61,702 nt of DNA, from the IMG/VR virus record IMGVR_UViG_3300045919_000415, positions 1 to 61,702 of that record, one strand, 5' to 3'. The DNA is from a virus (Duplodnaviria > Caudoviricetes). A model generated the notes under the pieces. It was not told the origin of the DNA and made no database searches. It worked only from the letters and a program-made list of their open reading frames with translations. A program made the position numbers and the translations under genes. Shown here piece by piece: positions 5,275 to 45,529 of the stretch (its first letter is position 1; every line of letters begins with the position of its first letter).

Positions 5275-5960
5275 TATGCGAGTGGCGGACCAGACACCAG
5301 AACGGGTGTTTGTTCGCGCAAGAGTTCGGCCCAGAGTTTGTTGCGGCCCTTTTGGGCGCGCGCTTCAACTTCGGGCGCAGATTCGAAAGCCGCGTACTGC
5401 AACATCGCGTCATACACGATGAGCATGTGAAAGCGGTTTGGAATTGCCGGGGCGTCCGTGTCCGCGCTCAACGTGATCGGCTGCGCGAAATACTCGCCAG
5501 TGATCACGTAAGGCACGTCCGGGATGGCTCCGAGCGCGAGATGCTTGGCGGGTGTGACAGACAACACCACCGGCCGCATGTAGTTCGTTCGCATCGGCCC
5601 GAAAAGATACAGGTCGCGGTAACGATCCCACGGTTGGAAATTCATGATCTGCTCGTCAAACAAGGATGAGCCGACCGTAGAGCAACGGAAACTGTCTACC
5701 TTGAAATTGGCGAAGTCGGCCAGTGACATTGGCGACACCGTCGGGTCGTAATCCCCGGTCAAGGCGGTGCACGTGAATTGAAGATTCTTGCGCAGGAAGA
5801 TCCAGTCTTCTCTTGCAGCTTGAATCTCAATCCACGCTTGCTGCACCCAGTTGTAGAACCGCTTTGATTCGAGCGTGGTGAGTCCAGTGAGGGTCGTGAG
5901 ATCACCGCCGGACACACCGCTCTCAGATCGAGCGCGGTTCACAAGCTGGAGGAAATTCAT
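5274..5960 (-). CDS. Head-tail adaptor / tail tubular protein A
   Basis: MNFLQLVNRAR...W.FL...P.IP.RFH.LIVY motif set typical of podovirus adaptors. Confidence 0.7.
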   Translation of the reverse strand: MNFLQLVNRARSESGVSGGDLTTLTGLTTLESKRFYNWVQQAWIEIQAAREDWIFLRKNLQFTCTALTGDYDPTVSPMSLADFANFKVDSFRCSTVGSSLFDEQIMNFQPWDRYRDLYLFGPMRTNYMRPVVLSVTPAKHLALGAIPDVPYVITGEYFAQPITLSADTDAPAIPNRFHMLIVYDAMLQYAAFESAPEVEARAQKGRNKLWAELLREQTPVLVSGPPLA

Positions 5961-6382
5961 TACGCGGGTTCAGCGAGGATGTGTGAAACCCACTCACGGC
6001 CCTTGGGGTTTTTGTCTTCGAGCACTTCGAACGGATACACGAGACCGGAGCGCGGAACCATTTCCATGCGGTCAGGTTCTGACGGATTCAACATGCGCTG
6101 GGTGTACTTCGTTTCCTTCATGCGCGCGAGGATCTCGATGAACTTGCGCTTGATGGTCACGGTCGTACCGCGGGCGACAGGCTGGTTCACACCGTTGCAA
6201 TTGAGCACAGCGACTTGTTGCAGGTTTTCGTCCGAAGTTTCATGCAGGCGGATGGTGACCGGCTCATTCATGAAGGCTTCAGAGGACACGAGGGCGCGAA
6301 GGTCCACGTTGGCGACAACAGGTTCGACGAGGGGTACGCCTTCGTCGGCAATCTGGACTGCGGGTTCATTGATCTTGGCCAC
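5960..6382 (-). CDS. Hypothetical virion-associated protein
   Basis: GTG 6382 with GGAG RBS; within structural operon. Confidence 0.55.
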   Translation of the reverse strand: MAKINEPAVQIADEGVPLVEPVVANVDLRALVSSEAFMNEPVTIRLHETSDENLQQVAVLNCNGVNQPVARGTTVTIKRKFIEILARMKETKYTQRMLNPSEPDRMEMVPRSGLVYPFEVLEDKNPKGREWVSHILAEPA

Positions 6383-14540: not shown

Positions 14541-14782
14541 TACGGTTCCGGGAAATAGACATCGTCCGCGTCAATCGACATGCTCCACACGCTGAGAACG
14601 TGGTTCGCAATGGTCGATGCAATCAGTTTTTTCGCTTGCTTTTCGTTGAGAGCGAAGGGAACGTCAACCGTGATATCCCCCTCTTGATGAATTACGCCAT
14701 CGGTCGCCGCTGCATGAAGAATCACCACATAGCCAGTCGACGACGTAGAGCATTGCGATGCGGTTGCGATGGCGTAGGTCAT
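14540..14782 (-). CDS. Hypothetical protein
   Basis: ATG 14782 overlaps the upstream stop. Confidence 0.5.
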   Translation of the reverse strand: MTYAIATASQCSTSSTGYVVILHAAATDGVIHQEGDITVDVPFALNEKQAKKLIASTIANHVLSVWSMSIDADDVYFPEP

Positions 14783-15351
14783 TAGATGCTCTCCCAGATT
14801 TGGTAGTTGTGCACCGTCAACGAACCCGTTGCCACGGTCTGCGTGAAGAACACATCGACCGCGTTTGCTGCCGTGTTGTCGAAGCCGCCACCAACTGCCG
14901 GAGCGGACACAGGGCAAAGCAACACGCCGTTGCCACCAGCAGCAGGAAGCGGTGCTGCGATAACGGCTTCCGACGTGAACCGGCCCATGCCGAACAGCGT
15001 CGTCGTTGTCGTCGTACCAACAGCGCGGCAGATCAACTCAACTTCCAACTCCCACGGCACCGTGGTCTTGGCGACGATGTTCAGATTCAGCGCACCAGTG
15101 TCGAATGCGACGATGGTGCCGCTTGGCCCAGTGCGGATGTCGAAACGTGCAGTGCCGGGAGTCGTGACAGCGCACGAGATGCGGCCTTGTAATTTGACTT
15201 TCCACGCCTTGCCGACCGTCCAGTAGTTGTTCGGCAGGATGAGGCGCGATGCCACCGGGATGCATGAGGCAGCGGCGGCGGAGGCCAGTGCCGGGCCATC
15301 GGTTGTGCCGATGACGAGCGGTACATACGAGGATGGATTGGGGTATGCCAT
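14782..15351 (-). CDS. Virion structural protein
   Basis: 189 aa beta-rich, AGGAG RBS. Confidence 0.6.
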   Translation of the reverse strand: MAYPNPSSYVPLVIGTTDGPALASAAAASCIPVASRLILPNNYWTVGKAWKVKLQGRISCAVTTPGTARFDIRTGPSGTIVAFDTGALNLNIVAKTTVPWELEVELICRAVGTTTTTTLFGMGRFTSEAVIAAPLPAAGGNGVLLCPVSAPAVGGGFDNTAANAVDVFFTQTVATGSLTVHNYQIWESI

Positions 15352-15658: not shown

Positions 15659-16054
15659 TTATGCACCCGTTGCCGTGATCACGAGCGACGATGCGCTCAC
15701 GACTTGCGACGACGCAATCGACGTATTGTTGATGGTCAGGTCGGTGCCAGAGGTGCCGATCGTACCCTGCACAACATCGGTGCCGCCCGAGGTCGCGATG
15801 CGGAAATAGCCGGCCGTGCCAGCTGCACCCGCCGTGCCACTGGTGATGGCCGAGGCTGTCAACGCACCAGCCGATGCGCTGCCAAAGCCAGCCGCGTTAC
15901 CCGTCAAGGTCACAAGCAGCGTGCCGGTGAAGGCGGTGGCCACGTTCGATGGGGGCGAGCCGGTGTAGATCTTGATGAGCGCTGACGTACCGATATCGGT
16001 ATTGAGCTGCGTCATCGAGTTGGTACGGTGGGTCGTGCTGTACTGGATCGCCAT
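15659..16054 (-). CDS. Conserved virion structural protein
   Basis: IKIYTGSPP...GTLLVTL...GTAGYFRI...QGTIG..G.DL pattern common in phage structural genes. Confidence 0.65.
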   Translation of the reverse strand: MAIQYSTTHRTNSMTQLNTDIGTSALIKIYTGSPPSNVATAFTGTLLVTLTGNAAGFGSASAGALTASAITSGTAGAAGTAGYFRIATSGGTDVVQGTIGTSGTDLTINNTSIASSQVVSASSLVITATGA

Positions 16055-19230: not shown

Positions 19231-20697
19231 TCAGTATCCCACCTCAGTGTCCAGCACCCCGAAGCTCGGGACGGTTATGTGTCGTTGCATCTTCTGCGCC
19301 TTGACTGCGGTTGCTTCATCCTTCGTCTTCGCGAAGCGCTTCATCATGATTGCGTAGCGTGTCGCGGACAGCACGTCGTCAAATTCCTTGACCAGACGCC
19401 CATCCTTGCGGTGGTACTGCCTGAACTCATCGAACCATGGAGCGAGGTGGCTGAACACCTTGAGCCTGCCTGTCTGCATGCGGTCGAGCATCTCAGCGAT
19501 GCCGGCCTCCACGCCGTTGCTGCCGTTCTCGAACGTGGCGCGGTCCTTCAACATGTTCAAGCCTTGGTCCTTGTACAGCTGCATCAGCTGCTCACCTGAA
19601 CCCTTATCGTGTTGCAAGCCGTCGTGGGGCCATGCCACGGGATACCAGTCCCCCTTGGCACGGATCACCATCGCGTGCTCCGGGACAGATTTCTTCTTCA
19701 TCACGTACACGTCGTAGACGTACAGCGTGTCGGTGTCGCGGTCCCACGCCATCCACACGGCGGCGGTCGGGTGGTCCCACCCAAAATCGATGCCGATGAT
19801 CTTCGGCCAGTGTGCAGGGATGGCGAAGGCACCTGTCTTGATGCCCGATTCCGTCACCGGGAACACGGCGCCCTCACCCAGCATCGGCACGCCATTGGCA
19901 CGCGCTTCGCGCTCGTGCTCCGGGTATGCGGCGATGATCGATTCGCGCTGCTCCGGTGTGTAGTGCAGCGCGTCTGCAATGGTCATCTGCGTGATGTGCG
20001 TGCCGGCCGGGCGCTCCTGCATGAAGCGACGCACCACGGCCGACATGCCTAGCAGCGGCGTGAACGTCAGCGCCACGATGCCCTGCGTCGCGTTGGTCCG
20101 TGTCAGGCCTTCGGTGTACAGGTCGAGCGGCGGCTCTTCGTCGAACCACACGTAGTCCAACGTGTCCGCCTGCCACTTGGTCCTGCCTTGGTCGTACGAC
20201 TGCAACTGGATGACGCTGTCCTCGCCGCAGCTGTGGCGCACCACGATGCTGGCCACCGCGTCAGGCACGCCGGGTCGTAGCGCCGTGGACCTCAGGGCCG
20301 CCTTCGGCAGGTAGCCCGTGCCCCACTGTTCACGCTCTTCAGGTGAGCCCAGCAACAGGCGCTGAATGCCCTTCTTCGTCAGCTCGGCAGACTCTGACCC
20401 TGCCATCGACCTGATGGCGTAGGGGAAGCGTCGACCGGTCCACCACTTCGGGTACACGCCCGTGGCATGCATGGACAGCTCCGCAGCGCCGCTCACGGTC
20501 TTGCCGAGCTGATTGCCAGCGGAGAAGAGGCGCTCCCGCGCTGCTGCTCCGGCGGCATGGAACTCCACCTGCTTCGGGTAAGGCTGGTACAGCGCAAGGC
20601 GGTTCTCGCGTTGCTTCTGGTGCTTGGTCTGCAGCACCGCGAGCAGCTCGCGACGCTCAGCGGGTGTCAGGCTTGTCAGGTCAACCGACTGGCTCAC
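19231..20697 (-). CDS. terL: Terminase large subunit (P22-like)
   Basis: Walker A AGNQLGKT, Walker B VWFDEE, TFTP, nuclease GIDFG and DD.LSA.RYA. Confidence 0.95.
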   Translation of the reverse strand: MSQSVDLTSLTPAERRELLAVLQTKHQKQRENRLALYQPYPKQVEFHAAGAAARERLFSAGNQLGKTVSGAAELSMHATGVYPKWWTGRRFPYAIRSMAGSESAELTKKGIQRLLLGSPEEREQWGTGYLPKAALRSTALRPGVPDAVASIVVRHSCGEDSVIQLQSYDQGRTKWQADTLDYVWFDEEPPLDLYTEGLTRTNATQGIVALTFTPLLGMSAVVRRFMQERPAGTHITQMTIADALHYTPEQRESIIAAYPEHEREARANGVPMLGEGAVFPVTESGIKTGAFAIPAHWPKIIGIDFGWDHPTAAVWMAWDRDTDTLYVYDVYVMKKKSVPEHAMVIRAKGDWYPVAWPHDGLQHDKGSGEQLMQLYKDQGLNMLKDRATFENGSNGVEAGIAEMLDRMQTGRLKVFSHLAPWFDEFRQYHRKDGRLVKEFDDVLSATRYAIMMKRFAKTKDEATAVKAQKMQRHITVPSFGVLDTEVGY

Positions 20698-21297: not shown

Positions 21298-21483
21298 TTA
21301 AATCTTCCCAGGCTTCACATCGGCCGTGAACCCGGGAATGTTTTTCAGCGCGCCGGTGCCTTTGCCTGCTTCGACGGGATAGCTGTCCGCCGGAATCTTC
21401 TGCGTGGGGATGCTGACCTTGCCGTCCACTACACCTTTGGTGCTGGGGTTGCGGCTGGCCTTGGGGCTTGAGAAGTTCTGCAT
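21298..21483 (-). CDS. Small basic hypothetical protein
   Basis: 61 aa with GAGG RBS. Confidence 0.55.
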   Translation of the reverse strand: MQNFSSPKASRNPSTKGVVDGKVSIPTQKIPADSYPVEAGKGTGALKNIPGFTADVKPGKI

Positions 21484-21510
21484 GGTTGCCTCTGTGTAGG
21501 TGTTGCGGGG

Positions 21511-21951
21511 TTAAACCTGTGAGCCCGGGGCGACGATGCTGCGTGTCTGCCCTTGGCGCTTTTTCGCTTCCTGTTGCCACATCGTGGACATGTCGGGAAT
21601 GTCAGCACTGTCACTGGCGCCTTCGCCTTGATCCTCGGCGCCGGTGTCGCCGGCTTCGGTGTCTTCGTCGGCAGCGGACTCGTTTTGCTCCGTGCCATTG
21701 ACGCACTCGGTGATTTCCTCGAGCGCCTCGTCGAGCGATGCGGCGTCTTCGTCGCAGAGCACTTGACCCTTGAGCGTGACCATGACGTGACAGCTGCCAT
21801 CGGTGCCGACGTGGATGATCGCCTTGTAGGTGCCCGGCTGCGCGCTGCCTTGGCTTTGATCTGCATCTGTCTGTGCGCCTGCACTCGGATCAGCCGGCGT
21901 AGGGGCTGCGCTGGCGGATGACTGTGCCGCTTGATCGAAGGGGCTTGACAT
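21511..21951 (-). CDS. Acidic hypothetical protein (first gene of late operon)
   Basis: ATG 21951 with AAGGA RBS. Confidence 0.55.
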   Translation of the reverse strand: MSSPFDQAAQSSASAAPTPADPSAGAQTDADQSQGSAQPGTYKAIIHVGTDGSCHVMVTLKGQVLCDEDAASLDEALEEITECVNGTEQNESAADEDTEAGDTGAEDQGEGASDSADIPDMSTMWQQEAKKRQGQTRSIVAPGSQV

Positions 21952-22072
21952 GTGGGTTCCTTGGGTTCTGTTCACGTTTGCCCGCTGTTCATGGAACGTG
22001 AACAGCGCGGGGAAGTGAACACTTTGTGAGGCGTGGAGGCTGGGAAATGCAGACGAAATTCGGGCGAGGTCG

Positions 22073-22101
22073 ATGATAGCTTGTGAGGCTAGCAAGCACA
22101 A
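22073..22101 (-). promoter_or_regulatory. Putative sigma70 late promoter
   Basis: TTGTGC-17 nt-TATCAT on the minus strand upstream of the structural operon. Confidence 0.5.
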
Positions 22102-22130
22102 GTGGGCGAAACATGCAAGGAAAATTGTAT

Positions 22131-22196
22131 TAGGGTTTACCCTTATACTGTTACAACATTTTACAATTTATTCCTGCAAAACCTAGGGTTTACCCT
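22131..22196. promoter_or_regulatory. Two TAGGGTTTACCCT dyad boxes (22131-22143, 22184-22196)
   Basis: Identical 13-mers containing AGGGT-N2-ACCCT, 53 bp apart, in the AT-rich divergent intergenic region. Confidence 0.6.
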
Positions 22197-22225
22197 GTAG
22201 ACGTCGATGTCTACACCTGTAGAAT
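22196..22225 (+). promoter_or_regulatory. Putative early promoter with overlapping operator
   Basis: TAGACG-16 nt-TAGAAT; near-perfect palindrome TGTAGACGTCGATGTCTACA at 22196-22215. Confidence 0.5.
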
Positions 22226-22240
22226 TCGAGCTTCAGTACC

Positions 22241-22423
22241 GCAGTTCAGCAACACGCAGTGACCTGATGTCGACAGGGAATTCGACAGAGTAGGTTGGCT
22301 GGTTTGTGTCAACGTACTCGACGGCTTGGACTACGAGGGATGCAGCGCCCCGTACGATGCCCGACTGGACCACCGGCTCACGCCGCCGGTGACGCATCAC
22401 TACACTGCCTGTTGCTGAGCTGC
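22241..22423 (+). ncRNA. Structured multibranch 5' leader RNA of the early operon
   Basis: 29-nt arms 22241-22269 and 22395-22423 pair (25 pairs including one G-U) and enclose several hairpins. Confidence 0.6.
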
Positions 22424-22463
22424 GTTGCTCAACACCTCCTCCCCCTACCTATGGAGCAATGCC

Positions 22464-22904
22464 ATGAACACTGTCGATATCACCGCCGCACACGTTGAAT
22501 CCCTGAAGGCCCGCCTCAAGGCTGCGAAGGACGAGCAGAAGGCTGCCGTGACTGAAGCCAAGGTGCATGCCAAGGCGCTCGCTGCAGCGAACAAAGCTGC
22601 AGACGCCGCAGGCAAGAAGGTCGGCAAGCAGGCTGTCGTGATCAGCAACCTGACCGCGCAACTCGCCGCCCTCAACAATGCCATGAACAATGCCGATATC
22701 ATCGCCGCACACATTGAATCCTTGAAGGCTTGGTGTCTTTCGAACTACGAACACGGCGCCGACGTGATGGTCGAATGCTGGGCCGATGAGGACTTCCGAT
22801 CGCTGCTCGCCTCATCAACGGACTACGCCGACGCGTTGTCCACCCTGATGGGCGTGGCTGCGGTCTACCGTGATCAGCGAGCCGACGCTCGCAACTCTTG
22901 GTAG
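22464..22904 (+). CDS. Early protein with duplicated N-terminal module
   Basis: GGAG RBS; MNTVDITAAHVESLKA repeated internally as MNNADIIAAHIESLKA. Confidence 0.7.
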   Translation: MNTVDITAAHVESLKARLKAAKDEQKAAVTEAKVHAKALAAANKAADAAGKKVGKQAVVISNLTAQLAALNNAMNNADIIAAHIESLKAWCLSNYEHGADVMVECWADEDFRSLLASSTDYADALSTLMGVAAVYRDQRADARNSW

Positions 22905-22907
22905 TCA

Positions 22908-22959
22908 GGACGAAACCGCCGGGAGGCGGTCCGCACGTGACGCGTGCGCTGATGAGTCC
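22908..22959 (+). ncRNA. Type II hammerhead ribozyme HHR1 (predicted cleavage after C22931)
   Basis: GGAC-GAAA-CCGCC(GGGA)GGCGG-TC-CGCACG(TGACG)CGTGCG-CTGATGA-GTCC. Confidence 0.93.
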
Positions 22960-22985
22960 AGCAGCACTCACTCTGGGGCAATGTC

Positions 22986-23216
22986 ATGAAATTCTGGGTC
23001 ATTCAAAACGCTCAAGGCAGCCCTTGTGGCTGCGAGCTCACGAAGGCGGCTGCAATCGAAACCGCGCGCAAAGAGGGGAACAGCGGCTTCTCGCTCCGTT
23101 GGTTGGATATCCCCGTGTCGAGCGAATCTATCCGACTCATCCTCGGAAACGGCGGTGGCTACGCCAACGAAGTGGGTAGAACGGAAGATTTCGATCCGGT
23201 GGGAGAATCAAAGTGA
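22986..23216 (+). CDS. Hypothetical early protein
   Basis: 76 aa, first gene after HHR1. Confidence 0.65.
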   Translation: MKFWVIQNAQGSPCGCELTKAAAIETARKEGNSGFSLRWLDIPVSSESIRLILGNGGGYANEVGRTEDFDPVGESK

Positions 23217-23392
23217 ACGGTTACATCTGTTTTTACAAAGACAAACGTGTTGAAGTCCACGCCGACTCAGCGTATGCGGCGCAGTGTGCGGTCGCTAAAG
23301 CTCTTCGCGTGTCCGATAAGAACCGCTGGAAAATCACCGTTTGTCTTGCCGAACGCTCAACTGGTGAGACCGTCGTGCACACTTTTCAATGA
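23213..23392 (+). CDS. Small early protein (59 aa, not in the ORF track)
   Basis: GTG start with GGGAG RBS: MNGYICFYKDKRVEVHADSAYAAQ...ETVVHTFQ. Confidence 0.7.
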   Translation: MNGYICFYKDKRVEVHADSAYAAQCAVAKALRVSDKNRWKITVCLAERSTGETVVHTFQ

Positions 23393-23401
23393 GGAACCAA
23401 A

Positions 23402-23680
23402 ATGAACGCCGTCCAATATCGTAAATATCGTAAGACGTGCATGACCCTTGCCGGCAAGATCGCCGAACAGATCGCCGCCCTCCCCGAGGCTGAGCGCTTC
23501 GGTGCGATCGTCGGAATTTTCAAGGCGGCCAGCAAGTCACCATCCCTTCGGGGTGACGTGTTCTGGACGCTCGACAACGAGCCCGGCCACTGGGATCACC
23601 TGAAGGGTTGGCACGGCGTGTTGCGCCAAGTGCGCAACACGCCGAGCGAAGGCACCAAGCTTTTCGCTCTGTTTTCGTAA
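23402..23680 (+). CDS. Hypothetical early protein
   Basis: 92 aa, GAGGA RBS; stop abuts HHR2. Confidence 0.65.
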   Translation: MNAVQYRKYRKTCMTLAGKIAEQIAALPEAERFGAIVGIFKAASKSPSLRGDVFWTLDNEPGHWDHLKGWHGVLRQVRNTPSEGTKLFALFS

Positions 23681-23683
23681 TCA

Positions 23684-23735
23684 GGACGAAACCGCCGGGA
23701 GGCGGTCCGCACGTGACGCGTGCGCTGATGAGTCC
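23684..23735 (+). ncRNA. Type II hammerhead ribozyme HHR2 (cleavage after C23707)
   Basis: Identical to HHR1. Confidence 0.93.
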
Positions 23736-23760
23736 AGAAGCACTCGCCTGGAGCAATGCC

Positions 23761-24234
23761 ATGTTTTCTTTCCCTCTTCACCCGAATGTCAGCGCTGGTG
23801 ACCTGAATGTTTTGGACCGGTTCCAAAAAAATCCGGCAGGATACAAATCCAGCACGGGCTGGTGCATTTTGTCGGCGTTTCGCAAGAGCAGCACGGGCTC
23901 GCAAAACGTGTTTGCCAGCACAGCGCTGGCGTACCTGCTGACCGCGCAGGGATACGCGTTTGATCGCACGGTCGGTGTGTACGAAGGCGAAGACCCTGAG
24001 CCCGGGTATCTGATCATTTGCGACAAGGCCAAGGCTATCTTCCTCGGTCACGGTCTCGGGCAAGAGTCGGTGTTAACGTCCGATGGGCTGGTGTATACGG
24101 ACAACAGCGGCCGAGACCCGGTGCCGTTCGACCACGGTCACACCGACCTGCTGGGCGCAGCTGCGGAGCGGGAGCCTTTTTATACCCACTTCCCGACGAC
24201 TGGGGTGTCGTGGTCTGCTCACCTGTTGTTTTAA
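23761..24234 (+). CDS. SAM lyase (T3 SAMase-like) anti-restriction protein
   Basis: ILSAFR...N...GVYEG...E...GQESVL...GLVY...FYT mirrors T3 SAMase motifs (VSAFR, GCYRE, EE, EQDCVL, GLVY). Confidence 0.72.
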   Translation: MFSFPLHPNVSAGDLNVLDRFQKNPAGYKSSTGWCILSAFRKSSTGSQNVFASTALAYLLTAQGYAFDRTVGVYEGEDPEPGYLIICDKAKAIFLGHGLGQESVLTSDGLVYTDNSGRDPVPFDHGHTDLLGAAAEREPFYTHFPTTGVSWSAHLLF

Positions 24235-24238
24235 GCAA

Positions 24239-24290
24239 GGACGAAACCGCCGCGAGGCGGTCCGCACGTAACGCGTGCGCTGATGAGTCC
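24239..24290 (+). ncRNA. Type II hammerhead ribozyme HHR3 (cleavage after C24262)
   Basis: GGAC-GAAA-CCGCC(GCGA)GGCGG-TC-CGCACG(TAACG)CGTGCG-CTGATGA-GTCC. Confidence 0.93.
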
Positions 24291-24313
24291 AGACCGACTT
24301 TAGGAGAATCAAA

Positions 24314-24601
24314 ATGCGTGGATATGAAGACATCGTGGCCGGCAACGCTCGCGCCCAATCCCTCGGGATCGAACTGCCGGCAGGCGCCATCGGCACCGAC
24401 CCCCTGCAGTCCAAGGGCCACAGCGCCGTGCAAGGCGGCCTGCGTGGCCACTCGTTGGGCCACGATTACCCGTTCACGGTCAGCAAGATCGGCGATCGCT
24501 ATCAAGCCTATCACTGCTTGCACCCGGAACAGTCGGGCCCGGCAGTCGACACCTACGCGGAGGCGAAGGCCTTCATCGCCGCCGCGCATCTGGGGCATTA
24601 A
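24314..24601 (+). CDS. Hypothetical early protein (single-gene cassette)
   Basis: 95 aa, AGGAG RBS, between HHR3 and HHR4. Confidence 0.7.
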   Translation: MRGYEDIVAGNARAQSLGIELPAGAIGTDPLQSKGHSAVQGGLRGHSLGHDYPFTVSKIGDRYQAYHCLHPEQSGPAVDTYAEAKAFIAAAHLGH

Positions 24602-24605
24602 GCAA

Positions 24606-24657
24606 GGACGAAACGCCCGCGAGGGCGTCTGCCGGTTTCGCCGGCACTGATGAGTCC
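24606..24657 (+). ncRNA. Type II hammerhead ribozyme HHR4 (cleavage after C24629)
   Basis: GGAC-GAAA-CGCCC(GCGA)GGGCG-TC-TGCCGG(TTTCG)CCGGCA-CTGATGA-GTCC; compensatory changes in stems I and III. Confidence 0.93.
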
Positions 24658-24677
24658 AGCTCGACTTTTAGGAGAGA

Positions 24678-25031
24678 ATGATGGCAAAGATTACGAACAA
24701 ACAAGTGCGCAGCGCCGTGGAGTCCCGCACGGAATTCAGCAATAAAACCGGCTCGTTGTACGGCGGCTGGCCTTACCCGGGCGTCTATGCCGTGAACAGC
24801 TACGGTCCGTGGTGGCCCCTGTTGGTGTACGTAGAGGCCGAAACCCAATGGTATGTCAACGTGACCCATCACAGCGCTACCACCAATCTGCACCGCAAGG
24901 CCGCATACCCGCGCAGCGAGAAGCCAATCATCGAGCTCACGTTGTCGGAAATCGATTCGTTGCTGGACGGCTTTCATGCGGCCGACTGTGACGCTCGCAA
25001 TGCCCGTAACGCCGCACGGGGGGAAGCATGA
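24678..25031 (+). CDS. Hypothetical early protein
   Basis: 117 aa, YAVNSYG..WPL...HSATT..H motif. Confidence 0.7.
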   Translation: MMAKITNKQVRSAVESRTEFSNKTGSLYGGWPYPGVYAVNSYGPWWPLLVYVEAETQWYVNVTHHSATTNLHRKAAYPRSEKPIIELTLSEIDSLLDGFHAADCDARNARNAARGEA

Positions 25032-25360
25032 AACTGCTCAACGCTTTTTCCCTTTCGATGCTGCCCGAATTCCGGGGCCGCGTCACCGTAGTGCGGCTCA
25101 CGCTGGAGGATGTCAAGCTCGACTTCGACGAAGAGCCGATAGAGTCTTTCGTTGGACACGCGGATACCGCCGCATTGTTTTCCGCCCTGATTGGCAAGGA
25201 AGTCGCTTGCCGTCGGGAGTCGGTCACCCTTCAGCCGGGAGAGCAGGTTTGGGTGGGCCAGTACACCGGCCCGCGTTTGCCAGAAGGCAGCAAGACGCTG
25301 CCGGAAGGCGCAAGCGTCGAATGGCTGTTTGTCACCGTCGACCGCGTCAACGAATCGTAG
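25028..25360 (+). CDS. acrIII-1: AcrIII-1-family viral ring nuclease (DUF1874, STIV B116-like)
   Basis: LLNAFSLSML, SFVGHADTA, RxxVTL.PG, GPRLPEG family motifs including the GH catalytic His. Confidence 0.85.
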   Translation: MKLLNAFSLSMLPEFRGRVTVVRLTLEDVKLDFDEEPIESFVGHADTAALFSALIGKEVACRRESVTLQPGEQVWVGQYTGPRLPEGSKTLPEGASVEWLFVTVDRVNES

Positions 25361-25369
25361 GAGATTTGA

Positions 25370-25744
25370 ATGAAAACATACATCAATTCATATTTTGGCC
25401 AGATCAAGGGTGTTTATTTGTCACCTGCTGATGCTGGATTCGGATTCGCCGAAAGGGCTATTGCGTACCTGTCCACTGATGGGACGTTTCTTGGTTACGA
25501 ATACCAGGATATAAAGAAGTACAACTCATACGAGCGTCAAATGCTCGTTGTTGGCAGGGCCCGTGTAGGAACCCAGTTGGATGATGAGCGCCGAGGAGCA
25601 GAGTTGTCTGTAGAAGTTAAGGATAAGTTGTCTTCGGCCCTCAAGGCCGCTCAAGATGAGCAACAAAGGAAGATTGCTGAAGAACTTGCGCAATTGAATG
25701 CGCAGACTTTCGATGTTTATGGCAACGAGGTTAATAATGGATGA
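25370..25744 (+). CDS. Hypothetical protein, lower GC
   Basis: 124 aa, AGGAG RBS. Confidence 0.65.
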   Translation: MKTYINSYFGQIKGVYLSPADAGFGFAERAIAYLSTDGTFLGYEYQDIKKYNSYERQMLVVGRARVGTQLDDERRGAELSVEVKDKLSSALKAAQDEQQRKIAEELAQLNAQTFDVYGNEVNNG

Positions 25745-25922
25745 ACCCATCGTTTTGCGGGCAAAGGAAGCCACTGTTTCAATGTCTCCAATGGATAATT
25801 TTGACGACACTTTTTTCGTCAGCATCGGAAATCCGGGATGTTCCATTTATTTCGGCCTGACTGAAGCGGAGTTGCGCAAGTTGCTGGACAACATCAACAA
25901 GCTGTTGGAGGTGTCGGCATGA
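25737..25922 (+). CDS. Hypothetical protein
   Basis: ATG 25737 with GAGG RBS. Confidence 0.55.
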   Translation: MDEPIVLRAKEATVSMSPMDNFDDTFFVSIGNPGCSIYFGLTEAELRKLLDNINKLLEVSA

Positions 25923-26116
25923 TTACCGACAACGACGGATACCTGTTTAGCCGTGATCCTGACGCGCCGGTCATTGCTGAGCGACTTGAACACGCGATGT
26001 GGGCATTGCAAGGGGCACTCAGCGCGATTCCTGCCGGTCATCCAGAGCGCCAGAAGATCGAGCGCGAACTCGAAATGATCGACGCCACCCTCGCCAAAGC
26101 ACGGGGGCAAGCATGA
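25919..26116 (+). CDS. Hypothetical protein
   Basis: 65 aa, GGAGG RBS, ATGA coupling. Confidence 0.6.
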   Translation: MITDNDGYLFSRDPDAPVIAERLEHAMWALQGALSAIPAGHPERQKIERELEMIDATLAKARGQA

Positions 26117-26223
26117 GACGCCTCTGGCCCGAAGTTCTCGCCTGCCTTTGCTTTGTTCTGTCGCCGATCCTGTTCGCTTGGCTGGCGATGTGCCTCGCCG
26201 AAATCGCACGCGGCACCTATTAA
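26113..26223 (+). CDS. 36-aa single-TM membrane peptide
   Basis: MRRLWPEVLACLCFVLSPILFAWLAMCLAEIARGTY; its TAA abuts HHR5. Confidence 0.55.
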   Translation: MRRLWPEVLACLCFVLSPILFAWLAMCLAEIARGTY

Positions 26224-26275
26224 GGACGAAACGCCCGCGAGGGCGTCCGCACGTGACGCGTGCGCTGATGAGTCC
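26224..26275 (+). ncRNA. Type II hammerhead ribozyme HHR5 (cleavage after C26247)
   Basis: GGAC-GAAA-CGCCC(GCGA)GGGCG-TC-CGCACG(TGACG)CGTGCG-CTGATGA-GTCC. Confidence 0.93.
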
Positions 26276-26293
26276 CACTTTTTACTGGAGGAA

Positions 26294-26743
26294 ATGATGG
26301 AACGCTATATCGACCCGGGCGTTGAACAGACGCCCGAATACTACGGCACGCTGCAAGCGATGCCTAACCCCTACTTCATCCCTGCGTGGGTGGTGCATAC
26401 CTTCACGATGTCATGCGGCGCCCCGGTGTGGATCGGGCACGCCGGCAACAAGCCGCCGCACGAAACGTACACGCTGTCCGAGGCCGAAGTGGAGCTCATG
26501 ATCGAGCACAAGGGCGACACCAACACCCTGTCCCGGTTGGTGCGTGATGGGCTCGCTCGCCGTGAACAGGCCTACAACGCCATGCAGGACGCCAAGGCGG
26601 CGTGGATGAGGGCGCCACTGGACGATGCCTCTACACGATTTTTATTGGCACGTTTCCAACAGCTCAGGGCGCTTTACTACCTCGACTTCACATCCCGCCA
26701 AAAGAACGTTTTTGTGGTTGGCGAACGGCAGACATACCCGTGA
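26294..26743 (+). CDS. Hypothetical early protein
   Basis: GGAGG RBS, first gene after HHR5. Confidence 0.65.
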   Translation: MMERYIDPGVEQTPEYYGTLQAMPNPYFIPAWVVHTFTMSCGAPVWIGHAGNKPPHETYTLSEAEVELMIEHKGDTNTLSRLVRDGLARREQAYNAMQDAKAAWMRAPLDDASTRFLLARFQQLRALYYLDFTSRQKNVFVVGERQTYP

Positions 26744-27042
26744 GAACCTACGCCCCCCGCCAACAGTCGCAGTTCGGGGCCAATGCGGCGCGTGCCCACG
26801 GTCCGCTGTACACGACCCAAGAGCTCGCGCTCGCACTGTCCAGCGTCACGCCGGGTTTGACCATGCGTGAGCTCACCTGCTTCATCATGAAACACGCCGA
26901 CACCGTGCCCGCACCGTCGACGCTTTACACCTCGCAGCGTGGCGCCGTCAAGTATTACCCGCTGCACTCATTCATTCGTTGGTACAAGGAAACCTTATGC
27001 AAATCGACCGCGCCTACAGCTGGGCACAAACCGAGCGAATAG
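26740..27042 (+). CDS. Excisionase/AlpA-like winged-HTH protein
   Basis: YTTQELA...P.P...KYYP...FIRWY pattern. Confidence 0.45.
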   Translation: MRTYAPRQQSQFGANAARAHGPLYTTQELALALSSVTPGLTMRELTCFIMKHADTVPAPSTLYTSQRGAVKYYPLHSFIRWYKETLCKSTAPTAGHKPSE

Positions 27043-27212
27043 CCCACGAGCTGCGCATCTCGAACGACAAGGCGCAAGCCCTGCACTACGAGATGGTGCG
27101 TCACGGCTACTTCGACACGACTCTCGTGCCACAACGCTTGATGGAACAGTGGCTTAAAGGGCCAAAGTACGACGTCCCCGAAAGCTTCTACACCCGTTAC
27201 AAACTCGACTAG
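26997..27212 (+). CDS. Hypothetical protein
   Basis: ATG 26997 with AAGGA RBS. Confidence 0.55.
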   Translation: MQIDRAYSWAQTERIAHELRISNDKAQALHYEMVRHGYFDTTLVPQRLMEQWLKGPKYDVPESFYTRYKLD

Positions 27213-27221
27213 GAGAGAATC

Positions 27222-27632
27222 ATGAAACTCGGTTCCCAAACCAACAGCATCGTGAATCACTTGTATGCACGCGGCACAATCGGCCAACCGGACCCGGTGG
27301 TCGGCATGGGTGTCACACTGCTCGGCTGGACTGACCGGAACGCCGGAACGATCCACGCCGTGCGCCTGTTGGCCAGCAAGCAGTGGTCGTGGGAAATCGA
27401 AGTGACCCACGACGCCTCGAAAGTCGTGTCCGGCTCCACGCTCGACGGAACGGCTGACTACGAATACACGCCGCGCCCGGACGGCGCACGCATGGTCTTT
27501 CGATTCAGCCTGAAATCAGGCATGTGGGTATGCGGAAGCATCAATCCAGACACCTCGAAATTCAATGCCAACAAACGCGGAAGTGGGTTGCGAATTGGTG
27601 AACGCGAGTCGTACTACGACCCCACGTTCTAA
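27222..27632 (+). CDS. Conserved phage hypothetical protein
   Basis: 136 aa, PVVGMGVT...WTDR...GxRESYYDPTF; TAA abuts HHR6. Confidence 0.7.
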   Translation: MKLGSQTNSIVNHLYARGTIGQPDPVVGMGVTLLGWTDRNAGTIHAVRLLASKQWSWEIEVTHDASKVVSGSTLDGTADYEYTPRPDGARMVFRFSLKSGMWVCGSINPDTSKFNANKRGSGLRIGERESYYDPTF

Positions 27633-27684
27633 GGACGAAACGCCCGCGAGGGCGTCCGCACGTAACGCGTGCGCTGATGAGTCC
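27633..27684 (+). ncRNA. Type II hammerhead ribozyme HHR6 (cleavage after C27656)
   Basis: GGAC-GAAA-CGCCC(GCGA)GGGCG-TC-CGCACG(TAACG)CGTGCG-CTGATGA-GTCC. Confidence 0.93.
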
Positions 27685-27708
27685 AGACCGACTTATAGGA
27701 GAGACAAC

Positions 27709-27960
27709 ATGATCCTCAAATACAACTCAAGCGTGAAGACGCCAGCGGGATGGCGTAATGTGGAAATCACGGCCACGGCAGAACGGGTCAGCAAGGGCAT
27801 GGCCTTGGTCACGCACATCAGTGCGATCGATGGCAAGCCGCTTGCCTACGACATGACGCGCACAGGTGCACGGCGTCAAGAGTTCAACGGCCATTTCTGG
27901 GCTGCCCGACAGGTCGGCACCATGAAGCGCATATCTGCGTGCACCGAGGTGCAGCCATGA
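27709..27960 (+). CDS. Hypothetical early protein
   Basis: AGGAG RBS after HHR6. Confidence 0.65.
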   Translation: MILKYNSSVKTPAGWRNVEITATAERVSKGMALVTHISAIDGKPLAYDMTRTGARRQEFNGHFWAARQVGTMKRISACTEVQP

Positions 27961-28196
27961 ATCACTTTCCACCCCTCTACTACGACGACCCTTACCACAG
28001 CCGGCAGTTCAACACGTGGATTCGCCTGAACTTCCTGTTGGCCTTGTTCGAGCCAGACGCCACTGTGTCGGCTATCGATGCCGGCTACTGCCTCGACGCG
28101 GTGCCGTCCATCCCGCGCGGCGGCATGCACGTCCGTCACATCAGCCGCTGGCTGCGCGCCAAGCCGACCTCGACCCTGATGCGGGACCTGCCATGA
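27957..28196 (+). CDS. Hypothetical protein
   Basis: GAGG RBS, ATGA coupling. Confidence 0.5.
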   Translation: MNHFPPLYYDDPYHSRQFNTWIRLNFLLALFEPDATVSAIDAGYCLDAVPSIPRGGMHVRHISRWLRAKPTSTLMRDLP

Positions 28197-28594
28197 GGGG
28201 CGCCATCCACCATCCGATGCTGGACAAGGCGCTCAGCTCCAAAGTGCAGAAGTTCCTCGCCATGGAGGCCACCGCCGGGATGGTGATGGGGCGCGATCGC
28301 TTCGGTGATCTCGACATCACGTTCTTCGGCCCGGCGTGGGACTTCGAGACCTTGGAACAGGCGCGATTCCATCACGACTCGAACGGCAACACGGTGCTCT
28401 CGACCTTCGAGAAACCCTCCGTCAGCCGGACCAAGGTCGCACTCGACCTGATGTCTGGCAACCCCGGCATGTCGATGCGCGAAGCGTCACGGCGTGCCGG
28501 CATCAACGTCATGGCGGTCTCACGCGCCGTGCGCAGCGCCGACAAACCGCGCTGCCCTCACTGCGGCTCAGTCATTCACCACAAGCCCAGCTGA
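28193..28594 (+). CDS. HTH DNA-binding protein with C-terminal CxxC
   Basis: MSMREASRRAGINVMAVSRAV HTH; CPHCG. Confidence 0.6.
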   Translation: MRGAIHHPMLDKALSSKVQKFLAMEATAGMVMGRDRFGDLDITFFGPAWDFETLEQARFHHDSNGNTVLSTFEKPSVSRTKVALDLMSGNPGMSMREASRRAGINVMAVSRAVRSADKPRCPHCGSVIHHKPS

Positions 28595-29094
28595 CTCGAC
28601 AGGCGTCGCCCCACGGCGGCACCTGTTTCATACTCCTTCTGGTCAATGAGCCCGCGCAACCACCGCGCCGCCTCGTCTCGTCCCGGCATCTTGGGCAGCT
28701 CACGCTGTCCCGTGCCGTGGCAGTAGCCGCAGTCCTCGTCCATGAGCGTCTGCACGTTCGTGCCCGGCAGGTGTCCCTTGCCTCCGCACGCACGACAATT
28801 CCCATCGATGTAATGATCCAGCACCTGCATCACCACCTTGCGTGCGTCCTGCCAGTTAATCACCGGCCCCCACTTGCTGCGACGCAGCTCCCCCTCCAGC
28901 ATCTGCACCACGTCGTGCGCCACGCTGCCGTCCTGCGTGAACTTCAGCCGCCACAGCGCCGCCCCGAGTGGGTTTCGCGCACCCGCCATCCCCATCGCCC
29001 GGATCACATCGATGTCCGACATGTCGTCAAGGTTATCTGACTCGCTCAGATCGCTTGATTCCATCGCGCCCACCATCCTTTCACTTCTTCCCAT
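28576..29094 (-). CDS. Antitermination protein Q-like (Zn finger)
   Basis: AMGMAG..NPLG.ALWRLK, CRACGGKG and CGYCHGTG. Confidence 0.65.
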   Translation of the reverse strand: MGRSERMVGAMESSDLSESDNLDDMSDIDVIRAMGMAGARNPLGAALWRLKFTQDGSVAHDVVQMLEGELRRSKWGPVINWQDARKVVMQVLDHYIDGNCRACGGKGHLPGTNVQTLMDEDCGYCHGTGQRELPKMPGRDEAARWLRGLIDQKEYETGAAVGRRLSSQLGLW

Positions 29095-29178
29095 CTCCTG
29101 CTCCCTCAGAATCGTTTTGGGCTGGCCAGATCGCTCCCAGTTGAACGATCGGACCCTTGTGTGTGGGTTGGGGCCTCC

Positions 29179-30609
29179 TCACCCTTTCAACGCAGCCAAG
29201 AGGCCGTTTTGCAAACTGTGCTTGCCCTGCAACAGGTCCGGCAGTGCCTCCTCCAGCGTGTCCGCCGCGCAAATGACCCGGACCACCACCTGCGCCGCCT
29301 GCGTCCCGTGGCGGTGCAGGCGATCGTTCAGCTGCTCGAAGTGGTCCAAGTCATGCGGGCAGCCGTACCAGACGACATTGTGTCCGGCGGTCTGCAGTCC
29401 GTCCAGACCGTGGCCGCCTTCCTTCGGGTGCATGACCAGCACCTGAAACTTGCCCGCGATCCAGTCCTGCAGCCGGTCAATGCGCCCGGCCCGCTTGCCG
29501 AGGCGCCGCAGAATGGCCTCCCGGTCCGCTGCGTAGCGGTACCCGACCACGATGCCGCCCGCGGTGCCGTCGACAATGTCCTCCAGCGCGTCCAGCTTCT
29601 CGTCGTGCACGTGTGCGACCTGTTTCTCCTGCCCGTGTTCGTCGTACGTGATGACCCGGCCATTGGCGATCTGCAGCAGCTTGATCATCTTGGCCGCCGC
29701 TTCGGGCGTCGCCACTTCCCGGTCACCAATCAACGTGACCAATTCGCTCTTGAGCTCGCGATACATCTCCCGCGCGTCCACGGGCAACTCCACCCACTCG
29801 GCCTTGATGATGAGTGGCGGCAGGTCCAGCCAGTCCTCCTTGCGAAACGCGAAGCAGATATCCGACACCCGCGCGCTCACCCGCGCCGCCGTGTCGTCCT
29901 TCTCCACATATACCGCACGCTGCTGCCCTTGGACCGTGATCAACTTGTCAATCGCCATGAACTGCTTGCGGAAGGCGCCAATGGTCGTGCCGAGGCGCTC
30001 ACCCCCGTCCAACAGTCCGACCGGGAAAAACACATCCTCGATGCCGTTGGCTGCCGGCGTGCCGGTCAGCTGCACCTGCCGCTTGACGAAGTCGCGAATG
30101 GACCGCGCCGCCCGGAACGCCAGACTCTTCTTGTTCTTGAGGTGACGCGCTTCGTCGAACACGACGCCGTCATACGGGAAGTTCACGCCATAGGCCCGCA
30201 CCAGATGCGGGAACTGCTCATAGCTCACCAAGTGGATGCACTCGCGCATCGCCAGCAGCGCCGCCTTGGTCCCGGCCCTGTCCTTCAACGCCAGCACTTT
30301 GCGGCTCTTGTCCTTCGGGTGCGCCACCCGCTGCAGCTGGATGTGGTCCGTGTCGATGATCCGCCAGCTCAGGTGCCGCGTGTGGTCCCACTTCGCGATC
30401 TCTTTCGGCCACGTCAGCTGCGTCACCCGCTTCGGGCTCACGATCAGCCACCGGCTCACCTCGAACCTGTCATGGGCCAGCACGTCGATCGCCGACAGTG
30501 TCGACACCGACTTGCCCAGCCCCGGCTTCGCCCACAACGCGCACGCCGGCAACTCGATCACCTTGTTCGTCATCGTCTGCTGATACGGCCTTGCCTTGTA
30601 TTGGGTCAT
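29179..30609 (-). CDS. SNF2-like DEAD/H-box helicase
   Basis: PGLGKS, FDEA, LTGTP, KLLQIANG, GGHGLDGLQ, QLNDRLHR. Confidence 0.88.
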   Translation of the reverse strand: MTQYKARPYQQTMTNKVIELPACALWAKPGLGKSVSTLSAIDVLAHDRFEVSRWLIVSPKRVTQLTWPKEIAKWDHTRHLSWRIIDTDHIQLQRVAHPKDKSRKVLALKDRAGTKAALLAMRECIHLVSYEQFPHLVRAYGVNFPYDGVVFDEARHLKNKKSLAFRAARSIRDFVKRQVQLTGTPAANGIEDVFFPVGLLDGGERLGTTIGAFRKQFMAIDKLITVQGQQRAVYVEKDDTAARVSARVSDICFAFRKEDWLDLPPLIIKAEWVELPVDAREMYRELKSELVTLIGDREVATPEAAAKMIKLLQIANGRVITYDEHGQEKQVAHVHDEKLDALEDIVDGTAGGIVVGYRYAADREAILRRLGKRAGRIDRLQDWIAGKFQVLVMHPKEGGHGLDGLQTAGHNVVWYGCPHDLDHFEQLNDRLHRHGTQAAQVVVRVICAADTLEEALPDLLQGKHSLQNGLLAALKG

Positions 30610-45353: not shown

Positions 45354-45529
45354 TCTGGTCCGCGCTCTTCTGGCTGATCGTTGCGATGGCGGCGGCTATT
45401 GCCCACATGACGACGCGAGTGGAGCGCGGAGACTTCGCGTTCTGGTTGGTGGTGGGGTGTAGCGTGCTGGGGTTGGCCGGGTTCATCACGGAGTGTGTGA
45501 ACGCCGGCCGTATCCCGTTTACATGGTAG
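45350..45529 (+). CDS. 59-aa two-TM membrane protein
   Basis: ATGA-coupled: MIWSALFWLIVAMAAAIAH...FWLVVGCSVLGLAGF. Confidence 0.45.
   Translation: MIWSALFWLIVAMAAAIAHMTTRVERGDFAFWLVVGCSVLGLAGFITECVNAGRIPFTW

Follow-up and report, generated by a model that had tools for sequence, protein, structure and literature searches.

Six hammerhead ribozymes stand in a row among the small genes of a tailed phage, and the question raised by this locus is whether they flag those genes as counter-defence proteins or serve the expression of any closely packed operon. The locus belongs to IMG/VR record IMGVR_UViG_3300045919_000415 (Duplodnaviria; Caudoviricetes), a complete virus record of 61,702 bp which in its full length is referred to as the window; three wetland-metagenome DNA runs, one of them a possible source of the record, contain the stretch as well, and no RNA run was found among its carriers. 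A sequence-only reading had described about 18 small genes in and just after the ribozyme array, had named two of them as counter-defence enzymes and had proposed an anti-defence island with the hammerhead as a guilt-by-association marker for such genes in other phages. Our best explanation, to which we assign a probability of roughly 65%, is an accessory operon that is cut into pieces by its ribozymes and carries two enzymes of counter-defence families, with the hammerheads acting as general processing modules. The recognisable cargo is new for a hammerhead array. The element and its likely role are not, because prophage hammerhead arrays and the idea that they process transcripts were published in 2011 (PMC3088659).

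Six type II hammerheads (HHR1 to HHR6; Rfam family RF02276, gathering score 37 bits) were found on the plus strand at 22908-27692, within 4.8 kb. Counterparts are given for L129, one of two viral contigs (L128 and L129) that have the same operon in the same place and a helicase 66% identical to that of the window.

22908-22967, plus strand: HHR1, RF02276 at 32.1 bits, backed by structure and covariation.
23684-23743, plus strand: HHR2, RF02276 at 30.2 bits; none was found at the matching place of L129.
24239-24298, plus strand: HHR3, RF02276 at 32.4 bits; kept in L129 at 15005-15064.
24606-24665, plus strand: HHR4, RF02276 at 38.4 bits, over the gathering score; kept in L129 at 14634-14693.
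26224-26275, plus strand: HHR5, RF02276 at 28.0 bits over 26227-26271, with full stems by the stem check; L129 counterpart at 13336-13395.
27633-27692, plus strand: HHR6, RF02276 at 33.1 bits, directly after the stop of 27222-27632; no L129 counterpart.

The GAAA, GUC and CUGAUGA core was intact in all six copies. In an alignment of these with the three L129 copies, 144 of 144 cells were paired and compensatory changes were present in 6 of 16 pairs, the nine sequences being related and hence recording few events. The covariation score was reached by none of 500 shuffles, partners slid out of register paired at 21-50%, and a rule combining the pattern with the stems gave no matches across 830 kb of unrelated viral loci. 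In the nine copies, covariation backed a fold of three helices surrounding the core, open at stem II. The window hammerheads are real as motifs, and they are predicted to cleave themselves. The three L129 copies displayed a CUGACGA core in place of CUGAUGA with all stems kept, a variant common to the whole array of that phage.

The position of the hammerheads relative to the genes was highly regular. In the window 0-4 nt separated the stop codon from the hammerhead (107 nt for HHR5) and 18-26 nt separated the hammerhead from the next start, which in each case is preceded by a Shine-Dalgarno sequence. We compared this with hammerheads from an exact-pattern scan of viral contigs, which gave at least 120 loci and underlies all forward counts reported here; the sample is biased to one stem II sequence, and hammerheads that are not type II, or whose core is imperfect, escape the pattern. 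Under the stricter stem rule 101 of these loci contained hammerheads, 159 in total, and 19 contained none. Because of their shortness 10 of 121 records were left out of gene calling, and 152 hammerheads lay in records that the gene caller could handle. Among these 152 listed hammerheads of other viral contigs, the median distance from the previous stop was 0 nt (quartiles 0-3) and to the next start 25 nt (quartiles 17-28). No listed locus had hammerheads on both strands, and 58 gaps between hammerheads measured 187-2180 nt. This stop-hammerhead-start spacing fits generic intercistronic processing and gives a quantified placement rule for phage type II hammerheads: the ribozyme lies 0-3 nt past a stop codon, and the next start codon follows it at ~25 nt.

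Two genes of the array could be recognised, 794 nt apart:

23761-24234, plus strand: S-adenosylmethionine (SAM) lyase family protein, 157 amino acids (aa), the sole gene between HHR2 and HHR3, recognised by fold and motifs.
25028-25360, plus strand: AcrIII-1 / DUF1874 ring nuclease homologue, 110 aa, recognised through PF08960, phrog_5063 and PDB matches.

The 23761-24234 protein gave a match of 18.1 bits (E 0.0027) to PF23780 (S-AdoMet_lyase). A word-index homologue search with it returned only itself, and a single-sequence phmmer search against the PDB returned no SAM lyase. An exhaustive phmmer search of 1.8 billion representatives, however, gave 105 relatives, and 18 stand-alone relatives (133-220 aa) were aligned with the query to make a family of 19 sequences. 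The profile of this family found the T3 SAM lyase 7ock as its best PDB match (E 0.0014); matches to PF23780 (E<=0.01, best 1.6e-7) were obtained for 10 of the 19 sequences, and matches to DUF3293 for 14. An AlphaFold2 (AF2) model with a mean predicted local distance difference test score (pLDDT) of 92.7 displayed the PII-like ferredoxin fold of the solved SAM lyases, and Foldseek ranks 1-7 were all SAM lyases. The top match was T3 8bb1_E (E 1.1e-5, template modelling (TM) score 0.57/0.61, root-mean-square deviation 3.8 over 142 columns), followed by 7ock chains and then by Svi3-3 (6znb/6zm9), the last of these weak (E 0.056-0.059, TM 0.23-0.29). Substrate-binding residues of Svi3-3 described as conserved by Guo et al. 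(PMC7877911) are Gly56, Tyr58, Glu69 and Gln104, with Glu105 and Ser106. In the 19 sequences G72 and Y74 do not vary, Q101 and S103 hardly do, and Q101-E102-S103 mirrors Svi3-3 Gln104-Glu105-Ser106; residues were mapped to Svi3-3 and T3 by motif and by profile alignment to T3, rather than by inspected superposition. The modelled fold and these motifs indicate that the 23761-24234 product is a member of the SAM lyase family, and it is the only gene between its two hammerheads, as the sequence-only reading had said.

Likeness to T3 SAMase and Svi3-3 covers the fold, the Gly-x-Tyr and Gln-Glu-Ser motifs and a similar size (157 aa), but identity to the window protein is just 14-21% and the window protein falls under the Pfam cut-off. 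The T3 early transcript is processed by RNase III, and the window gene too is predicted to sit on a multigene transcript that is processed.

Elsewhere the SAM-lyase-like/DUF3293 domain occurs mostly within giant proteins: 74 of the 105 representatives exceed 1000 aa and 64 exceed 2000 aa, and in viral contigs 35 of 42 SAM-lyase-like copies lie in open frames of at least 1016 aa. The window encodes a polyvalent protein of 3252 aa (45519-55277, minus strand) with ART-PolyVal, LPD37, LPD38 and DUF7178 domains, in which BLASTP detected no SAM-lyase-like domain. A term search of Iyer et al. 2017 (PMC5512222) gave no match for a SAM lyase.

The product of 25028-25360 matched PF08960 with 31.4 bits (E 2.2e-7), over the 26-bit cut-off, and phrog_5063 at 1.3e-14. 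PDB sequence matches were 2x4i (5.7e-6), 2j85, 2j6b and 6scf, and include SIRV1 ORF114, STIV B116, AFV3-109 and the complex with cyclic tetra-adenylate (cA4), entry 6scf. This protein has a 44% identity to the DUF1874 protein of phage THSA-485A, whose gene abolished cA4-based type III immunity (bioRxiv 10.1101/778746). The same study found His47 of SIRV1 gp29 to be catalytic and 'absolutely conserved', and termed the cA4-contact residues 'semi or fully conserved'. The counterpart of His47 in the window protein is H44, which shows no variation in a five-sequence alignment, and the contacts Asn8, Ser11, Thr50, Arg66, Gln81 and Arg85 are kept. Compared with AcrIII-1 of SIRV1 (gp29), the window protein differs in having Asp for Ser49 and Ser for Asn13. 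At the level of the family, the assignment from these sequence matches is solid. The sequence-only reading had placed AcrIII-1 after HHR4; the family holds, but the gene is the second after that hammerhead, preceded by 24678-25031, which it overlaps by 4 nt. A group I intron (75 bits) was seen at 5906-6274 of a 306-kb viral contig (L237), ~600 nt downstream of an AcrIII-1 homologue.

The plus-strand unit (~22200-28594) lies between divergent packaging genes and convergent replication genes, flanked by TerL (19231-20697, minus strand) on one side and by an SNF2 helicase (29179-30609, minus strand) on the other. It comprises 17 genes at 22425-28594, all on the plus strand and with positive coding scores, or 18 with a possible gene at 26863-27042, so that the earlier count of about 18 stood and every open reading frame (ORF) named with it was recovered. 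Genes were called with a self-written codon-usage caller trained on the window itself, which recovered 16 plus-strand genes; 28193-28594 was scored by hand (24.7), the caller having put a weak minus-strand ORF there (28372-28545, score 5.6). A GGAG-type Shine-Dalgarno sequence preceded most gene starts in the operon. Two features head the unit:

22131-22143 and 22184-22196, plus strand: palindrome pair TAGGGTTTACCCT, 13 nt, just upstream of the promoter; putative operator pair.
22198-22225, plus strand: sigma-70-like promoter TAGACG-16-TAGAAT, a consensus match.

Exact copies of the palindrome number two in the whole window (chance mean 0.21), 53 nt apart and both at the head of the operon, and the pair looks like an operator pair for a repressor. 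L129 has one exact copy (15943-15955) in the equivalent place before the equivalent promoter, where the hexamers TAGACG/TAGAAT also follow the palindrome. The promoter was the sole promoter-like site in 21400-29300, yet this count is no higher than in shuffles, and no convincing internal terminator was found within the operon. Because palindrome and hexamers recur at the operon head in L129, we infer that one regulated promoter probably drives the entire unit.

The proposed mechanism begins with one accessory operon of the complete 61.7-kb tailed phage, extending from a palindrome-guarded promoter (~22131-22225) to 28594, whose polycistronic RNA would be cut by the six hammerheads into seven pieces. 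Because the hammerheads sit in the order stop-hammerhead-start and cleavage is expected after GUC, the upstream mRNA would end at stem III and the downstream one would start at stem I. A 2',3'-cyclic phosphate would then terminate the upstream message behind its stem III hairpin. The downstream message would have a 5'-OH and, as its first structure, the 6-bp stem I hairpin, with the ribosome-binding site ~20 nt further on. The seven pieces would presumably be separately stable and separately translated mRNAs. The SAM lyase homologue may use up SAM, thereby disabling SAM-dependent type I restriction and bacteriophage exclusion (BREX), or may cleave the SAM-AMP signal; the AcrIII-1 ring nuclease would break down cA4, the signal molecule of type III CRISPR; and the remaining genes would be fast-evolving accessory genes of mixed roles, some of them possibly counter-defence. 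The operon would be a natural example of two counter-defence family enzymes, degrading a signal or a cofactor, on one predicted ribozyme-processed transcript.

Clustered hammerheads of prophages cleave in vitro according to Perreault et al. 2011 (PMC3088659), where processing into gene-length mRNAs was proposed. The arrays described there resemble that of the window in that several same-strand type II hammerheads flank single genes or short blocks of varying identity; one array surrounds the anti-restriction gene ardA, which in three Legionella strains comes after a hammerhead. The window differs in having six copies in 4.8 kb and in carrying a SAM lyase and AcrIII-1 instead of ArdA, and the stop-hammerhead-start spacing is quantified here over 152 copies. 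Our search for literature linking natural hammerheads to counter-defence found nothing later than Perreault 2011; the hammerhead of the Racr paper was engineered.

The two relatives allowed the content of the operon to be compared. L128 and L129 keep seven island genes at 42-78% identity, namely 23402 (72%), the SAM lyase (45%), 24314 (78%), 24678 (42%), 26294 (66%), 26979 (61%) and 28193 (60%), together with three hammerheads. Missing from both are 22425, HHR1, 22986, 23213, HHR2, 27222, HHR6, 27709 and 27939, as well as the entire AcrIII-1 block 25028-26116 (25028, 25370, 25737 and 25919), at the position of which they encode a 99-aa protein without assigned role and a NinX homologue (PF10765, 9.7e-12). 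Because these close relatives keep the operon but are without the AcrIII-1 block and other genes, gene content marks the region as an accessory operon that varies in the middle while its head and tail are conserved. In the window a leader of ~200 nt (22226-22424) separates the promoter from the first gene, compared to ~55 nt from the promoter to the 23402 homologue in L129. Because the L129 promoter directly precedes that homologue, the leader, 22425-22904, HHR1, 22986 and 23213 resemble an insertion at the operon head. Among annotated phages the only close DNA relative was a 145-bp match to Burkholderia phage CSP3.

The value of the hammerhead as a marker was assessed in both directions. In the forward direction, 281 genes adjacent to or between hammerheads were reduced to 230 at 90% identity and to 197 families, and were compared with 150 controls drawn at random from 500 same-strand genes of at most 330 aa that lay at least 1 kb from a hammerhead and had a coding score >5. 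Virome mining had been suggested as a way to reveal anti-defence families concentrated beside hammerheads, and no enrichment was observed: a known anti-defence Pfam family occurred in 1 of the 230 neighbour genes listed, with none among 25 of the 49 control families. This single case was an AcrF31 homologue encoded just before a hammerhead, on its upstream side, in phage L078 (34 kb, complete); ArdA, SAM lyase and DUF1874 had no Pfam match among the 230. Pfam families numbered 20 in the first 115 neighbours and 12 in the second 115, compared to 49 in the 150 controls. The PHROGs of hammerhead neighbours were mostly unnamed. Among 25 of 33 and 25 of 29 PHROGs none had an anti-restriction or Acr label, and those with names were DNA helicase, HNH endonuclease, ATPases, invertase, integrase, RusA, processivity factor, DNA polymerase, repair protein and NUDIX. 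ArdA was found in none of 48 hammerhead-bearing records searched whole and, because it was absent from all 48, the result is uninformative on its position.

The reverse direction gave a similar answer. With a five-sequence DUF1874 alignment as query, none of the best 80 of 102 viral AcrIII-1 loci had a type II hammerhead within 5 kb, and 17 of these 80 loci, scanned with Rfam at the gathering score, contained no ribozyme. SAM-lyase-like viral loci had a type II hammerhead within 5 kb in 2 of 42 cases, both close relatives of the window, and the family of the window gene 27222-27632 had one in 0 of 80 loci, out of 210 viral loci. The marker proposed in the sequence-only reading thus found no backing in either direction (1/230 forward; 0 of the best 80 and 2/42 in reverse). 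Hammerheads look like general message-processing sites rather than a flag for counter-defence cargo; as a flag they fail with the families known today, and they mark tightly packed small-gene operons generally.

The commonest family beside hammerheads was DUF932, present in 9 of 230 neighbours against 1 of 150 controls (one-sided Fisher p 0.047). Of its gene copies (~316 aa), 26 of 34 were immediately downstream of a hammerhead and 2 were between hammerheads; examples are L088:11283-12233, L094:1258-2226 and L108:2457-3404. A search of the DUF932 literature found no connection to ribozymes or counter-defence, and one preprint ties a plasmid DUF932 gene to phage resistance. DUF7178, a domain of the window's polyvalent protein, also stands alone beside hammerheads, in 2 of the 230 neighbour genes.

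Several points weigh against an operon of this kind with two working counter-defence enzymes. Only one of the six hammerheads reaches the Rfam gathering score, the rest scoring 28.0-33.1 bits with E 0.001-0.02 on an 8.5-kb stretch. The SAM lyase homologue is under the PF23780 cut-off (18.1 < 28 bits), and E80, the likely equivalent of Glu69, falls where the alignment is gapped and variable. AcrIII-1 is changed at two of its cA4 contacts (Ser49 to Asp, Asn13 to Ser), and a preprint (10.1101/2023.01.10.523387) reports a viral DUF1874 protein that is not an anti-CRISPR in native infection because it is expressed late. Transcription from a single promoter, self-cleavage and timing are all predicted from the sequence. 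Finally, hammerhead neighbours are about half as often annotated by Pfam as controls (20 + 12 families in 230 vs 49 in 150), which is also the expected look of a pool of undiscovered accessory or counter-defence genes. The marker test itself sees only known families, with a crude gene caller of our own and an exact-pattern sample of at least 120 loci, and known anti-defence proteins are represented in Pfam and PHROGs only in part. Because these tests see only families already known, the orphan genes may still be new counter-defence proteins.

Of the other explanations the one that survives best is compatible with ribozyme processing and adds to it, and we regard it as possible. It holds that the hammerhead repeats are also recombination handles, so that hammerhead, leader, Shine-Dalgarno and gene form a portable cassette exchanged at or near the 52-72-nt repeats. 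The window copies are 67-96% identical over 72 nt and their left and right halves are differently combined, with stem III common to HHR4, HHR5 and HHR6 and stem I plus the 3' leader common to HHR3 and HHR6. The extra block of the window relative to L129 (27222 - HHR6 - 27709 - 27939) brings its own hammerhead, and in 4 of 5 other contigs the 27709 family member is no more than 30 nt away from a hammerhead. The replacement of AcrIII-1 by NinX, however, is internal to a single hammerhead-bounded segment: it follows the 24678 homologue, which is retained, and does not coincide with a hammerhead. The 27222 family had a hammerhead in none of 80 other loci.

A full anti-defence island, in which most of the 15-16 other ORFs would encode novel counter-defence factors and the last one an Aca-like repressor that targets the promoter palindromes, appears unlikely. 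The part of this proposal that stood is the pair of counter-defence family genes 794 nt apart in one variable operon; the part that did not is the claim of further counter-defence genes around them, since hidden Markov model (HMM) searches, a method that sees known families only, gave the neighbours no match to a known family. The genes are small, several are acidic (isoelectric point (pI) 4.3-5.0), and they are fast-evolving or orphan and variable between relatives; an HTH-like (helix-turn-helix) last gene and a promoter palindrome are both conserved, any connection between them being conjectural. The AcrF31 homologue of phage L078 and an Agrobacterium ardA flanked by hammerheads, the latter described by Perreault et al. 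(PMC3088659), point the same way. Against this, the other genes match no known anti-defence family or fold, as searched with Pfam for all, PHROGs for all but the possible 26863-27042, NCBIfam for ten, the PDB for four, the ESM Atlas for two and fold comparison for one. The place of the AcrIII-1 block is taken in a relative by NinX, a Pfam name from NinX of phage P22 and without an anti-defence label. The 27222 family never lay within 5 kb of AcrIII-1 or of a SAM-lyase-like gene (80 + 80 + 42 loci), and tblastn with all island proteins against the AcrIII-1, 27222 and SAM-lyase-like loci and the rest of the window gave co-occurrence only in close relatives. Annotated neighbours of hammerheads elsewhere are mostly genes of DNA metabolism (helicase, HNH, RusA, processivity factor, polymerase, integrase), and the HTH match of 28193-28594 is under its cut-off. 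Were the orphan genes counter-defence after all, the operon would be a compact source of inhibitors and the hammerheads a cheap sequence flag.

We are more doubtful still that the SAM lyase homologue is a SAM-AMP lyase, in which case both recognisable genes would target type III CRISPR signalling and not restriction. Phage enzymes of the same PII-like lyase fold cleave SAM-AMP and carry the tentative name AcrIIIB4 in one report (PMC12255297), and the window gene lies two genes upstream of AcrIII-1. The top structural matches, T3 SAM lyase and Svi3-3, are on the other hand true SAM lyases. The residues of the conserved G-x-Y and Q-E-S motifs bind the methionine end of SAM according to Guo et al. 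(PMC7877911) and do not tell one substrate from the other.

Comparably doubtful is a bolder reading, in which hammerhead, 20-nt leader and Shine-Dalgarno would be a portable expression adaptor for captured counter-defence genes, expressed as nuclease-protected mRNAs, with 24314-24601 and the 27709 family as new counter-defence proteins. Its basis is that the 24314 cassette is arranged hammerhead-gene-hammerhead in two phages that are 22% diverged, and that the 27709 family stands beside hammerheads in 4 of 5 other contigs. If true, it would explain why the SAM-lyase-like module occurs in injected giant polyvalent proteins of most phages and as a ribozyme-bounded gene here. That most of the small ORFs are spurious, or that the hammerheads have decayed into inactive repeats, is very improbable: five of six hammerheads are under the Rfam gathering score, 23213-23392 has a coding score of just 2.2 and many ORFs are without homologue, but all cores are intact, 144/144 cells pair with compensatory changes, seven island genes are kept at 42-78% amino-acid identity in relatives, most starts have a Shine-Dalgarno, and the tight stop-hammerhead-start spacing is common to 152 hammerheads elsewhere.

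The accessory operon of the window also has likenesses to two other known arrangements. Anti-CRISPR and anti-defence clusters are made of small variable genes with an Aca-type HTH repressor. The window resembles them in its small variable genes that include counter-defence families, its HTH-like end gene and the inverted repeat at its promoter; it differs in that just 2 of 17-18 genes are recognisable, the HTH match is under cut-off and the repressor role is putative. The nin region of lambdoid phages holds small non-essential genes of mixed function between the regulatory/replication genes and the late genes. The window unit is likewise a run of small genes varying between relatives, one of which has NinX (PF10765), but it is a separate divergent operon beside the terminase genes and is punctuated by ribozymes.

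The other genes of the operon, which yields a short list of testable orphans, are as follows. None of these 15-16 genes had a named family above cut-off in Pfam and PHROGs (26863-27042 in Pfam only).

22425-22904, plus strand: gene, 159 aa, coding score 45.8; ends 3 nt before HHR1; sub-threshold Pfam matches only, no PHROG.
22986-23216, plus strand: gene, 76 aa, coding score 11.5; no Pfam, PHROG or NCBIfam match; no L128/L129 homologue.
23213-23392, plus strand: gene, 59 aa, the weakest call, coding score 2.2; DpnD/PcfM-like at E 0.036 only; no homologue in L128/L129.
23402-23680, plus strand: gene, 92 aa, basic; 72% homologue in L128/L129, where it is the first operon gene; no family match.
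24314-24601, plus strand: gene, 95 aa, coding score 25.3; sole gene between HHR3 and HHR4.
24678-25031, plus strand: gene, 117 aa; 42% homologue in L128/L129; no family or PDB match.
25370-25744, plus strand: gene, 124 aa, acidic, coding score 15.9; no family match; no L128/L129 homologue.
25737-25922, plus strand: gene, 61-67 aa, acidic, start at 25719 or 25737, coding score 7.3; no Pfam/PHROG match; no L128/L129 homologue.
25919-26116, plus strand: gene, 65 aa, acidic, coding score 9.3; DUF5955 at E 0.0046, under cut-off; followed by a 107-nt gap and HHR5.
26294-26743, plus strand: gene, 149 aa; 66% homologue in L128/L129; no family or PDB match.
26863-27042, plus strand: uncertain gene, 59 aa, within the 235-nt gap; in this frame 26743-26979 scores positive for coding; no Pfam match.
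26979-27212, plus strand: gene, 77 aa; 61% homologue in L128/L129; no Pfam, PHROG or NCBIfam match.
27222-27632, plus strand: gene, 136 aa, all-beta fold; large phage-only family, absent from L128/L129.
27709-27960, plus strand: gene, 83 aa, basic (pI 10.1); the family recurs beside hammerheads.
27939-28196, plus strand: gene, 85 aa, coding score 12.1; phrog_15172 at 8e-4; no L128/L129 homologue.
28193-28594, plus strand: last gene, 133 aa, coding score 24.7; a 60% homologue closes the operon in L128/L129.

NCBIfam gave nothing meaningful for ten operon ORFs, and a PDB sequence search with 24314, 24678, 26294 and 27222 gave nothing at E<0.1. The 22425-22904 protein would be internally duplicated, because its gene contains a 54-nt direct repeat that is 91% identical (22457-22510 / 22676-22729). 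The gene 24314-24601, which the sequence-only reading had correctly described as a single-gene cassette, has two homologues (92% and 78% identical) in a word-index search of 5.8 billion proteins and a weak match to phrog_29226 (1.2e-5); the 78% homologue, in L129, is likewise the sole gene between two hammerheads. A pI of 4.3-5.0 was calculated for the products of 25028, 25370, 25737 and 25919. The otherwise tight operon has two gene-free gaps, 26117-26223 (107 nt, before HHR5) and 26744-26978 (235 nt, after 26294-26743), neither with an Rfam match at E<=1; the possible gene 26863-27042, in the second, has a weak tblastn match in relatives (E 9e-4).

The family of 27222-27632 has 33 homologues and 210 viral loci, and occurs in Burkholderia, Variovorax, Synechococcus and Streptomyces phages. 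The AF2 model (pLDDT 87.1) had no PDB match at E<=0.001; its best VIA Z was 4.6, to Tudor/SH3-like barrels, in a range considered common, and the ESM Atlas and BFVD returned unnamed viral clusters or uncharacterised viral look-alikes only. In Burkholderia phage CSP3 (L127) fourteen small genes lie between the small and large terminase genes (886-5523), the first being a 27222 homologue; thirteen are annotated as hypothetical and one as an ASCH-domain protein, and the pattern found no type II hammerhead.

Homologues of 27709-27960 were found in five other viral contigs, four of them within 30 nt of a hammerhead: just downstream of it in L030 and L087, and just upstream in L036 and L011. Two Vibrio-phage records with Shewanella hosts also have homologues, and the best ESM Atlas score (0.75) is a lead only. 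The last gene, 28193-28594, has an HTH_24 match (E 0.0017, 18.3 bits, under the 21.9 cut-off) and a C-terminal zinc ribbon, and its product is a candidate regulator with a weak winged-HTH.

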